A stretch of 64,000 bases of DNA from Escherichia coli (GTDB taxonomy: Bacteria; Pseudomonadota; Gammaproteobacteria; Enterobacterales; Enterobacteriaceae). The DNA lies in assembly GCF_003019035.1 (NCBI RefSeq), contig NZ_CP027447.1. One strand, given 5' to 3'. Positions 21,591 through 26,721 of the stretch are shown piece after piece; position 1 is the first letter of the stretch, and each line of letters opens with the position of its first letter. The notes beneath the pieces are model-generated. The model was not told the origin of the DNA, searched no databases, and worked only from the letters and a program-made list of their open reading frames with translations. Both the position numbers and the translations under genes were made by a program.

Positions 21591-21663
21591 GTGAGGCACT
21601 CGGTTATGAATTACCGCGATGCTACAATGTGGCGCGAAGAATGTTAACCCTCTGGAGCGTTTT

Positions 21664-24093
21664 GTGTCGTCGTTGCCCGTTGCTGCCGTCTTACCTGAGT
21701 TACTTGCTGCCCTCGATGGTGCACCGCAGGTGTTATTAAGTGCGCCGACCGGGGCCGGGAAATCAACCTGGCTGCCGCTGCAACTGCTGGCGCATCCCGG
21801 CATTAACGGAAAAATTATCCTGCTGGAGCCGCGTCGTCTGGCGGCGCGTAACGTCGCGCAACGGCTGGCGGAGCTGCTTAACGAAAAGCCAGGCGATACC
21901 GTTGGCTACCGGATGCGTGCGCAAAACTGCGTCGGCCCGAATACCCGCCTGGAAGTGGTTACCGAAGGCGTGCTGACGCGCATGATCCAGCGTGACCCGG
22001 AACTGAGCGGTGTTGGATTGGTGATCCTCGATGAGTTTCATGAGCGCAGTTTGCAGGCGGATTTGGCGTTGGCGCTGTTACTCGATGTGCAACAAGGTCT
22101 GCGTGATGACCTTAAACTGCTGATTATGTCGGCTACGCTGGACAACGACCGCTTGCAGCAAATGCTGCCAGAAGCGCCCGTCATCATCTCAGAAGGGCGC
22201 TCGTTTCCGGTTGAACTCCGTTATTTACCGCTGCCCGCGCATCAGCGTTTTGACGAAGCCGTTGCGGTAGCCACCGCCGAAATGCTGCGTCAGGAAAGCG
22301 GATCATTACTGTTATTTTTACCTGGCGTCGGAGAAATTCAGCGTGTGCAGGAACAACTGGCTTCGCGCATCGGCAGTGATGTGTTGCTCTGCCCGCTGTA
22401 TGGCGCGTTGTCGCTGAACGATCAGCGAAAAGCGATCCTCCCGGCACCGCAAGGGATGCGCAAAGTGGTGCTGGCGACCAATATTGCTGAAACCAGTTTA
22501 ACCATTGAAGGTATTCGTCTGGTGGTGGATTGTGCCCAGGAGAGGGTGGCGCGTTTTGATCCGCGTACAGGGCTTACGCGGTTGATTACTCAACGCGTTA
22601 GTCAGGCGTCGATGACGCAACGTGCCGGGCGTGCCGGGCGTCTGGAGCCGGGTATCTGCCTGCATTTAATCGCCAAAGAACAAGCAGAACGCGCTGCCGC
22701 GCAAAGTGAACCGGAGATCTTACAAAGCGATCTTTCCGGTTTGCTGATGGAATTACTGCAATGGGGATGCAGCGATCCGGCGCAGATGAGCTGGCTGGAT
22801 CAACCGCCAACGGTGAATCTACTGGCCGCGAAACGCCTGTTACGGATGCTGGGGGCGCTGGACGGTGAACGGCTTAGTGCGCAAGGGCAAAAAATGGCAG
22901 CGCTGGGTAACGATCCGCGTTTAGCGGCAATGCTGGTTAGCGCGAAGAACGACGACGAAGCTGCTACCGCGGCAAAAATTGCCGCCATTCTCGAAGAGCC
23001 GCCACGGATGGGCAATAGTGACCTGGGCGTGGCGTTTTCGCGCAATCAACCCGCCTGGCAGCAACGTAGTCAGCAACTGTTAAAACGCTTAAACGTACGC
23101 GGCGGTGAGGCAGACAGTTCGCTTATCGCGCCGCTACTTGCCAGAGCGTATGCCGATCGCATTGCTCGTCGCCGTGGGCAAGATGGACGCTATCAACTGG
23201 CAAACGGCATGGGGGCGATGCTCGATGCCGACGATGCGCTAAGCCGCCACGAATGGTTGATCGCACCGTTATTATTGCAGGGCAGCGCCTCGCCGGATGC
23301 GCGGATTTTACTGGCGCTGCCGGTCGATATTGATGAGTTAGTACAACGCTGCCCGCAGCTGGTACAGCAATCGGACACCGTGGAGTGGGATGACGCGCAA
23401 GGTACGCTGAAAGCCTGGCGTCGGCTGCAAATCGGTCAGTTGATGGTGAAAGTGCAGCCACTGGCGAAACCCTCGGAAGACGAGTTGCATCAGGCGATGC
23501 TTAACGGCATTCGTGATAAAGGTTTAAGCGTGCTCAACTGGACGGCGGAAGCGGAACAGCTACGCTTGCGTTTGTTATGCGCCGCAAAGTGGTTGCCGGA
23601 ATATGACTGGCCAGCGGTTGATGATGAAAGTTTGTTGGCGACGCTGGAAACGTGGCTACTGCCGCATATGACAGGCGTACATTCGCTACGCGGCCTGAAA
23701 TCACTCGATATTTATCAGGCACTGCGTGGATTACTTGATTGGGTAATGCAGCAACGTCTGGATAGTGAATTGCCTGCGCATTACACTGTGCCGACGGGAA
23801 GCCGGATCGCCATTCGTTACCATGAAGATAACCCGCCCGCGCTGGCGGTGAGAATGCAGGAGATGTTTGGTGAGGCCACTAATCCGACTATCGCCCAGGG
23901 GCGCGTACCGTTGGTGCTGGAGTTGCTTTCCCCTGCCCAAAGGCCGCTGCAAATCACGCGTGATTTGAGCGCCTTCTGGAAAGGAGCGTACCGTGAGGTG
24001 CAAAAAGAGATGAAAGGGCGTTATCCCAAACATGTCTGGCCGGACGACCCGGCAAACACCGCACCGACGCGACGAACGAAAAAGTATTCGTGA
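21664..24093 (+). CDS. hrpB: ATP-dependent RNA helicase HrpB (DEAH box)
   Basis: ORF 21619..24093; GTG start at 21664 gives (M)SSLPVAAVLPELLAALDGAPQVLLSAPTGAGKST...; Walker A and DEFHER motif. Confidence 0.93.
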   Translation: MSSLPVAAVLPELLAALDGAPQVLLSAPTGAGKSTWLPLQLLAHPGINGKIILLEPRRLAARNVAQRLAELLNEKPGDTVGYRMRAQNCVGPNTRLEVVTEGVLTRMIQRDPELSGVGLVILDEFHERSLQADLALALLLDVQQGLRDDLKLLIMSATLDNDRLQQMLPEAPVIISEGRSFPVELRYLPLPAHQRFDEAVAVATAEMLRQESGSLLLFLPGVGEIQRVQEQLASRIGSDVLLCPLYGALSLNDQRKAILPAPQGMRKVVLATNIAETSLTIEGIRLVVDCAQERVARFDPRTGLTRLITQRVSQASMTQRAGRAGRLEPGICLHLIAKEQAERAAAQSEPEILQSDLSGLLMELLQWGCSDPAQMSWLDQPPTVNLLAAKRLLRMLGALDGERLSAQGQKMAALGNDPRLAAMLVSAKNDDEAATAAKIAAILEEPPRMGNSDLGVAFSRNQPAWQQRSQQLLKRLNVRGGEADSSLIAPLLARAYADRIARRRGQDGRYQLANGMGAMLDADDALSRHEWLIAPLLLQGSASPDARILLALPVDIDELVQRCPQLVQQSDTVEWDDAQGTLKAWRRLQIGQLMVKVQPLAKPSEDELHQAMLNGIRDKGLSVLNWTAEAEQLRLRLLCAAKWLPEYDWPAVDDESLLATLETWLLPHMTGVHSLRGLKSLDIYQALRGLLDWVMQQRLDSELPAHYTVPTGSRIAIRYHEDNPPALAVRMQEMFGEATNPTIAQGRVPLVLELLSPAQRPLQITRDLSAFWKGAYREVQKEMKGRYPKHVWPDDPANTAPTRRTKKYS

Positions 24094-24186
24094 AGACCAA
24101 AGCAAATTTGAGAGATATCTTCTTCTGTCTTGCAACAGAAGAACAGAAAATCGGGCTTTTGCGCCTGAATATTGCGGAGAAAAAGC

Positions 24187-26721
24187 ATGGCCGGGAATGA
24201 CCGCGAGCCAATTGGACGCAAAGGGAAACCGACGCGTCCGGTCAAACAAAAGGTAAGCCGTCGTCGTTACGAAGATGACGATGATTACGACGATTATGAT
24301 GACTATGAGGATGAAGAACCGATGCCGCGCAAAGGTAAGGGCAAAGGCAAAGGGCGTAAGCCTCGTGGCAAACGCGGCTGGCTATGGCTGCTGCTAAAAC
24401 TGGCTATCGTTTTTGCCGTGCTGATCGCCATTTACGGCGTTTATCTCGATCAAAAAATTCGCAGCCGTATTGATGGCAAGGTCTGGCAATTGCCCGCGGC
24501 AGTTTATGGTCGAATGGTCAACCTTGAGCCAGACATGACCATCAGCAAGAACGAGATGGTGAAGCTGCTGGAGGCGACCCAGTATCGCCAGGTGTCGAAA
24601 ATGACCCGTCCTGGTGAGTTTACCGTACAGGCCAACAGCATTGAGATGATCCGCCGTCCGTTTGATTTCCCGGACAGCAAAGAAGGGCAGGTGCGCGCGC
24701 GTCTGACCTTTGATGGCGATCATCTGGCGACGATCGTCAATATGGAGAACAACCGTCAGTTCGGTTTCTTCCGTCTTGATCCGCGCCTGATCACTATGAT
24801 CTCTTCACCAAACGGTGAGCAGCGTCTGTTTGTGCCGCGCAGTGGTTTCCCGGATTTGCTGGTGGATACTTTGCTGGCGACAGAAGACCGTCATTTCTAC
24901 GAGCATGATGGGATCAGTCTCTACTCAATCGGACGTGCGGTGCTGGCAAACCTGACTGCCGGACGCACGGTGCAGGGGGCGAGTACGCTGACGCAACAGT
25001 TGGTTAAAAACCTGTTCCTCTCCAGCGAGCGTTCTTACTGGCGTAAAGCGAACGAAGCCTACATGGCGCTGATCATGGACGCGCGTTACAGCAAAGACCG
25101 TATTCTTGAGCTGTATATGAACGAGGTGTATCTCGGTCAGAGCGGCGACAACGAAATCCGCGGCTTCCCGCTGGCGAGCTTGTATTACTTTGGTCGCCCG
25201 GTAGAAGAATTGAGCCTCGATCAGCAGGCGCTGTTGGTGGGTATGGTGAAAGGGGCGTCCATCTACAACCCGTGGCGTAACCCGAAACTGGCGCTGGAGC
25301 GACGTAACCTGGTACTGCGTCTGCTGCAACAGCAACAGATTATTGATCAAGAACTCTATGACATGTTGAGTGCACGTCCGCTGGGTGTTCAGCCGCGCGG
25401 TGGGGTGATCTCTCCTCAGCCAGCCTTTATGCAACTGGTGCGTCAGGAGCTGCAGGCGAAATTAGGCGATAAGGTAAAAGATCTCTCCGGCGTGAAGATC
25501 TTCACTACCTTTGACTCGGTGGCCCAGGACGCGGCAGAAAAAGCCGCCGTGGAAGGCATTCCGGCACTGAAAAAACAGCGTAAGTTGAGCGATCTTGAAA
25601 CCGCGATTGTGGTTGTTGACCGCTTTAGCGGTGAAGTTCGTGCGATGGTCGGTGGTTCTGAGCCGCAGTTTGCGGGCTACAACCGTGCGATGCAGGCGCG
25701 TCGTTCGATTGGTTCCCTTGCAAAACCAGCGACTTATCTGACTGCCTTAAGCCAGCCGAAAATCTATCGTTTGAATACGTGGATTGCCGATGCGCCAATC
25801 GCGCTGCGTCAGCCGAATGGCCAGGTCTGGTCACCGCAGAACGATGACCGTCGTTATAGCGAAAGTGGCAGAGTGATGCTGGTGGATGCGTTGACCCGTT
25901 CGATGAACGTGCCGACGGTGAATCTGGGGATGGCGCTGGGGCTGCCTGCGGTTACGGAGACCTGGATTAAACTGGGCGTACCGAAAGATCAGCTGCATCC
26001 GGTTCCGGCGATGCTGCTGGGGGCGTTGAACTTAACGCCAATCGAAGTGGCGCAGGCATTCCAGACTATCGCCAGCGGCGGTAACCGTGCACCGCTTTCT
26101 GCGCTGCGTTCGGTAATTGCGGAAGATGGCAAAGTGCTGTATCAGAGCTTCCCGCAGGCGGAACGCGCGGTTCCGGCGCAGGCGGCGTATCTGACACTAT
26201 GGACCATGCAGCAGGTGGTACAACGTGGTACGGGGCGTCAGCTTGGGGCGAAATACCCGAACCTGCATCTGGCAGGGAAAACAGGAACTACCAACAATAA
26301 CGTAGATACCTGGTTTGCGGGCATTGACGGCAGCACGGTGACCATCACCTGGGTAGGCCGTGATAACAACCAACCGACCAAACTGTATGGAGCCAGCGGG
26401 GCAATGTCGATTTATCAGCGTTATCTGGCTAACCAGACGCCAACACCGCTGAATCTTGTTCCGCCGGAAGATATTGCAGATATGGGCGTGGACTACGACG
26501 GCAACTTTGTTTGCAGCGGTGGTATGCGTGTCTTGCCGGTCTGGACCAGCGATCCGCAATCGCTGTGCCAGCAGAGTGAGATGCAGCAGCAGCCGTCAGG
26601 CAATCCGTTTGATCAGTCTTCTCAGCCGCAGCAACAGCCGCAACAGCAACCTGCTCAGCAAGAGCAGAAAGACAGCGACGGTGTAGCCGGTTGGATCAAG
26701 GATATGTTTGGTAGTAATTAA
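24187..26721 (+). CDS. mrcB: penicillin-binding protein 1B (bifunctional glycosyltransferase/transpeptidase)
   Basis: ORF 24172..26721; start at [14 protein letters not shown] (24187); glycosyltransferase motif EDRHFYEH, transpeptidase SxxK (SLAKP) and KTG; acidic D/Y-rich then KGKGKGKG N-terminal tail. Confidence 0.95.

Follow-up and report, generated by a model that had tools for sequence, protein, structure and literature searches.

In the 64-kb stretch of Escherichia coli DNA analyzed here (the window), a spacer of 93 bp separates the hrpB stop codon from the mrcB start codon, and the locus raises three questions: what the longer K-12 spacer contains, whether the short or the long form came first, and what the two forms share. 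The initial annotation had given the length of 93 bp and had set it against a K-12 spacer of about 195 bp. The first value was confirmed and the second proved exact: hrpB lies at 162105-164534 and mrcB at 164730-167264 of NC_000913.3, and alignment of the interval with K-12 MG1655 returned 93 versus 195 bp. Pairwise, all 102 extra K-12 bases sit right after the hrpB stop codon, and the 75 to 80 bp adjoining mrcB are common to the window and K-12 and nearly identical. The stop codon in the window is the TGA at 24091-24093, and mrcB starts with ATGGCCGGGAATGACCGC, the same as in K-12. The annotated hrpB start is expected near 21664, by length comparison with K-12 hrpB (2,430 bp). The features of the locus are collected in Table 1.

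Table 1. Features of the hrpB-mrcB locus in window coordinates
Feature	Coordinates	Strand	Basis
hrpB	21619..24093	+	ORF list, from first ATG; RefSeq name in identical or near-identical genomes
hrpB-mrcB spacer, 93 bp; very probably the empty allele at a BoxC site that varies among strains	24094..24186	+	
Variable left part of spacer, 13 nt, AGACCAAAGCAAA	24094..24106	+	
Conserved core, 80 nt, common to all alleles	24107..24186	+	Spacers of 94 species-representative genomes
Candidate sigma-70 promoter: TTGAGA (24108-24113), 17 nt, TGCAAC (24131-24136)	24108..24136	+	
Conserved stem-loop TTCTTCTGT / CTTGCA / ACAGAAGAA	24120..24143	+	Perfect 9-bp inverted repeat
Second short stem (putative), T-CGGGC / TTTTGC / GCCTG-A	24151..24168	+	
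GGAG Shine-Dalgarno	24176..24179	+	
mrcB (PBP1b)	24187..26721	+	ATG at 24187; ORF list, RefSeq annotation of matching genomes

The view that the source strain is not K-12 was borne out by the flanking genes: the final 500 nt of hrpB share 94.2% identity with K-12, and for the initial 500 nt of mrcB the figure is 97.6%. Strain SCU-301 matched the window with 100% identity over 1,101 bp, and a 117-nt spacer query taken from the window had an identical copy in, for example, APEC IMT5155. When the first 500 nt of mrcB were compared with two other Escherichia lineages, one of them strain E69, ungapped identity was only about 40%. This indicates indels in an acidic, D/Y/E-rich repeat near the PBP1b N-terminus, at approximately 24270-24330 of the window.

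The extra K-12 DNA was then compared with known small repeats. It reads GGTTGGTTTTCT-CCCTCTCCC-TGT-GGGAGAGGG-CCG-GGGTGAGGG-CATCAGCGCGCACGTTCA-CCCTCACCC-TAA-CCCTCTCCC-TCAA-GGGAGAGGG-GACCGATCGAGCAC. The motif called BoxC in the 1990s has since been named PIT element (2000, Hoyne/Maher), TMECO (Holder 2015, PMC4666352) and HPGQ (Kaplan 2016, PMC5100583), and its consensus is CCCTCNCCC-N3-6-GGGNGAGGG-N3-GGGNGAGGG (PMC4666352). The K-12 insert contains two exact matches to this consensus, one on each strand, where none is expected by chance. Within an extracted 6.5-kb K-12 locus they lie at 3048-3080 (+) and 3099-3132 (-), and the whole composite spans 3036-3149. The loops are CCG on the + strand (type B) and TTA on the - strand (type A), so that the intergenic composite of about 110 to 114 nt consists of inverted type B (+) and type A (-) units joined by CATCAGCGCGCAC. 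The same layout is seen in the BoxC pairs at entC, gcvP, and sstT. These three K-12 pairs, together with the single argF unit, carry short terminal motifs, ...TTTTCT on the type-B side and GGG-GACnGnnnGnGCnC on the type-A side; since these motifs belong to the composite, the element takes up practically all of the K-12 DNA from the stop codon to the conserved core. A computed Watson-Crick fold gave one long hairpin of -74.2 kcal/mol (z = -8). The two units are already catalogued: Table 1 of Holder 2015 (PMC4666352) lists TMECO 1 at 164,547-164,580 (type B, +) and TMECO 2 at 164,631-164,597 (type A, -), and the HPGQ entries of Kaplan 2016 (PMC5100583) place numbers 5 and 6, the same units, between hrpB and mrcB. 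Holder 2015 reports triplex formation by TMECO in vitro and not in vivo (PMC4666352).

No BoxC unit or hairpin core (CCCTCNCCC...GGGNGAGGG) was found in the spacer or elsewhere in the 64-kb window, even with a relaxed pattern that allowed 3 mismatches. Table 1 of Holder 2015 (PMC4666352) is consistent with this result, as it places the next K-12 copy at 282 kb. We next asked how the two forms are distributed among 5,426 complete E. coli genomes. When the whole 194-nt spacer of an inverted form (described below) served as the query, its palindrome aligned both ways and gave 2,870 apparent matches, and the counts of the K-12-type and inverted alleles were taken with junction-specific 90-nt queries. 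The K-12-type allele, with its junction and central spacer, was present in 3,235 genomes (59.6%), the short 93-bp allele, as one contiguous match, in 1,884 (34.7%), and the inverted whole composite in 32 (0.6%). By difference, about 275 genomes (about 5%) carry other forms. The split is the same as that in a smaller published set. For TMECO 1/2, whose flanks are named as hrpB and mrcB in Supplemental Table S2 of Holder 2015 (PMC4666352), Supplemental Table S3 scores 56 E. coli genomes as 33 with no change, 21 with "intergenic deletion, TM missing" and 2 with "palindrome effect." The length polymorphism at hrpB-mrcB is therefore already published and is an ordinary strain difference, and we are highly confident that the 93-bp spacer represents this known polymorphic BoxC site in its BoxC-free state.

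Several further alleles were found at the same position. The inverted composite of the 32 E. coli genomes (e.g., CP53, 194-nt spacer) also occurs in another Escherichia lineage (strain E69), and its reverse complement aligned end to end with the K-12 element, end motifs included. Either an independent insertion or an inversion in place could possibly have produced this orientation. Neither the inverted whole-composite allele nor the recurrence of the composite at this spot across genera appears in the available portions of Holder 2015 and Kaplan 2016. Spacers of 131/132 bp and 137 bp are hairpin-only derivatives that cover both orientations of the BoxC pair; the 131- and 132-bp forms have lost the DNA flanked by the direct repeats CCCTCTCCC(T) or GGGAGAGGG of the two units and retain one hairpin. 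Such a deletion is the "palindrome effect" of Holder 2015, whose Fig. S6B draws the remaining stem-loop (PMC4666352). Escherichia sp. E1V33 carries a hairpin-only derivative of the K-12 type. A second short allele of E. coli (O6:H16 M9682-C1, GPEC606) has AGATCAAAGTAAA in place of AGACCAAAGCAAA. Its flanks are about equidistant from the window and from K-12 (95 to 96% in hrpB), which places the short state on more than one haplotype background. In E. coli A11, from a giraffe, small deletions affect both the BoxC pair and the 3' end of hrpB, and hrpB is annotated as a pseudogene without its C-terminus. This variant could reflect either BoxC-associated instability or an assembly error.

The order in which the short and long states arose was then considered. 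An outgroup scan covered 97 loci, with the E. coli representative, E. fergusonii, E. marmotae, and S. enterica not among them. The spacers of E. albertii and E. whittamii are 93 bp long and follow a TGA stop codon; the 13-mer AGACCAAAGCAAA is identical in E. whittamii, and E. albertii has AAACCAAACCGAA. The 93-bp form is thus old. All short alleles (the window, the second E. coli allele, E. albertii, and E. whittamii) have TGA as the hrpB stop codon and both full-length BoxC-occupied alleles have TAA, a split which suggests that gain or loss of the element touches the stop codon itself. The 13-nt left part was also examined as a candidate BoxC scar and rejected, its alignment scores against the BoxC ends of five other copies being no better than those of shuffles. 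Because E. albertii and E. whittamii share the 93-bp length, because two diverged short alleles exist in E. coli and because the 13-mer is devoid of any BoxC motif, we infer that the short state is somewhat more likely than not the older, unoccupied state of Escherichia. The BoxC composite would have arrived later, either through some mobilization mechanism or when an occupied allele was brought in by homologous recombination. Since the two alleles do not differ between 24107 and the mrcB ATG, the length difference reflects gain or loss of the entire composite.

The reverse order of events, in which an ancestral BoxC composite was excised by slippage or through its hairpin and left the 13 nt as a scar, is a serious possibility, if a somewhat improbable one. 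It differs from the reading above in polarity only, and the identity of the allele is the same in both. BoxC is widespread at this position across genera, so the occupied state could be ancient, but the shared length and TGA stop codon of E. albertii, E. whittamii, and two diverged E. coli haplotypes would require a deletion that was either very old or repeated identically several times. The 13-mer itself points both ways. It is similar to AGAAAAGCAAA, the 11 nt after the type-B unit of the inverted allele at the same locus (P about 0.01), a similarity shared by none of the BoxC ends compared from other loci, and type-B units elsewhere in K-12 are followed by AGAAAA(C/G); however, no CCCTC or GGGAG remnant is left. 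Partial deletions between internal direct repeats do occur here, as the 131/132- and 137-bp spacers and the published "palindrome effect" attest, yet inspection of the sequences revealed no direct repeats at the break-points required to yield the short product from either long allele. Excision would also fit the class "intergenic deletion, TM missing" that Holder 2015 (PMC4666352) gives to the short state in its supplement, as well as the finding that a clean insertion with target-site duplication would not turn the short allele into either long one, the stop codons differing too.

The same spot was compared across the Enterobacteriaceae. Spacers were taken from 94 species-representative genomes, in which the locus was found by a degenerate MrcB N-terminus pattern with the C-terminal 100 amino acids of HrpB as an anchor. 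The left part, between the stop codon and the core, was no longer than 1 nt in 19 of the 94 (some Citrobacter, Buttiauxella, and Cedecea) and 8 to 17 nt without a repeat motif in 4, including E. albertii and E. whittamii. It carried BoxC-type motifs in 33 (Enterobacter, Leclercia, Lelliottia, Pseudocitrobacter, Kluyvera ascorbata, Huaxiibacter, and other Escherichia lineages), REP-like palindromes only in 14 (Salmonella arizonae and many Citrobacter), and something else in 24. A near-identical composite with the same central spacer, CATCAGCGCGCAC, is present in Lelliottia, where it is inverted, and in Pseudocitrobacter, where it has the K-12 orientation and is tandemly repeated; Pseudocitrobacter faecalis and strain RIT691 have up to five BoxC-type units in tandem at this spot. 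The position behind the hrpB stop codon is therefore a recurrent home of small repeats in both orientations and looks like a cross-genus hot spot.

The REP-like palindromes at this spot in Salmonella arizonae, diarizonae, and several Citrobacter, the length difference between the alleles, and the general abundance of REPs in long K-12 intergenic regions would all suit the proposal of the initial annotation that K-12 holds a REP-type element (REP/BIME) here, that this strain lacks one and that REP content accordingly differs. A REP is an imperfect palindrome of approximately 35 bp whose halves have the consensus GCCKGATGCGRCG... and ...CTTATCMGGCCTAC. No match to the half-site CTTATCMGGCCTAC was present in the 6.5-kb K-12 locus, even with up to 3 mismatches allowed, and the insert instead has two BoxC/TMECO consensus matches, both already in the literature under that name. 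The proposal is thus almost certainly wrong: at hrpB-mrcB it is BoxC content, and not REP content, that differs, and the assumption that a long K-12 intergenic region signals a REP is corrected. The accompanying remark that the window has no canonical REP palindrome did stand. None was found in the spacer, and over the 64 kb the half-site matches were at chance level (2 found versus 0.46 expected in one consensus search and 8 versus 4.3 in the other). The two CTTATCMGGCCTAC-type matches in the window were not REP-like on direct reading. Palindromes as strong as this one (-74 kcal/mol) can drop out in cloning or assembly, but the idea that the short spacer arose when a GC-rich palindrome collapsed during sequencing or assembly can be dismissed: the identical short form, which has a 13-nt sequence and a stop codon of its own, recurs in 1,884 independent complete E. 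coli genomes and in two further Escherichia species.

What the alleles share is the core. All 94 spacers end in a core of 79 to 81 nt that adjoins the mrcB ATG, and in the window the core accounts for 80 of the 93 bp, with 13 nt only lying outside it. In alignment A2, of 62 distinct sequences, 31 columns were invariant, including TTGAGAGA and the GGAG Shine-Dalgarno sequence. The arms of the conserved stem-loop pair 24120-24128 with 24135-24143. When a two-stem structure of 16 pairs was scored over the 62 sequences, 92.6% of the cells were paired, versus 43 to 54% with the partners slid, and 64 cells showed changes on both sides, versus 26.9 +/- 4.1 in shuffles, none of 500 shuffles reaching 64. 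All of the double changes fell in the 24120-24143 helix, at 6 of its 10 pairs, and RNAalifold predicted the same helix. Frequent U-G pairs on the + strand point to the mrcB-sense strand as the one that folds. The pairs of the second stem are almost invariant and none was changed on both sides, which demonstrates conservation and leaves the structure putative. Rfam covariance models gave only chance matches (E > 1) over 23700-24600, and a literature search for an mrcB leader or untranslated-region structure returned nothing relevant.

The core also overlaps a promoter listed in the literature. Shimada 2014 (PMC3946193) places a constitutive RpoD promoter, TTGAGA-17-TGTAAC, between hrpB and mrcB; K-12 has TGTAAC as the second hexamer and the window has TGCAAC. 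TTGAGA was invariant in the 62 sequences, and the second hexamer lies within the variable hairpin loop. A consensus promoter and terminator scan of 23900-24400 found nothing and did not call the Shimada site, and the sigma-70 promoter in the core is treated here as a published candidate only. Taken together, the core with TTGAGAGA and the covarying stem-loop, overlapping this promoter, may represent a leader or regulatory element of mrcB that has yet to be described.

Neither allele disrupts the hrpB or mrcB coding sequence or the conserved core, and in earlier tests, cited in Holder 2015 (PMC4666352), PIT elements had no promoter or terminator activity. For these reasons, gain or loss of BoxC probably has little effect on hrpB or mrcB and is neutral or nearly so. 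A subtle effect is possible upstream of the putative -35 hexamer, where the DNA is A-rich in the short form versus GC-rich BoxC in K-12.

In terms of known systems, the K-12 DNA missing here is TMECO 1+2 (164,547-164,631), an inverted pair like four other K-12 pairs, and the window itself is the empty allele, with no BoxC unit. REP/BIME (PU) elements are, like BoxC, small intergenic palindromic repeats that vary between strains; the K-12 insert differs from them in having no REP consensus and in consisting of CCCTCNCCC/GGGNGAGGG units, which are triplex- or hairpin-type motifs. With MITE-like elements (ERIC/IRU, Neisseria Correia), the K-12 composite shares a length of about 110 nt, a palindromic structure, an intergenic location, occurrence in either orientation, and presence/absence polymorphism, but unlike them it shows no visible target-site duplication at this locus. 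BoxC is not known to have a cognate transposase. Holder 2015 found no association of TMECO with mobile elements (PMC4666352).

As another example of the published instability of BoxC/TMECO sites, the difference between this strain and K-12 matters little. The short allele, present in roughly 35% of complete E. coli genomes, including JJ1886 and APEC IMT5155, both of which we take to be phylogroup B2, is usable as a strain or lineage marker. All states of the site coexist in E. coli, and the locus is a convenient natural test bed for the gain, loss, and flipping of BoxC. It is conceivable, though we consider it unlikely, that the few bases behind the hrpB stop codon are a preferred landing site for BoxC (and REP) in either orientation and across genera, and, separately, that TTGAGAGA with the stem-loop is a cis-regulatory element of mrcB. 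A landing preference, if true, would imply a site-selective mobilization or recombination mechanism for BoxC, and the conserved hairpin is a candidate for control of PBP1b, an important cell-wall synthase.
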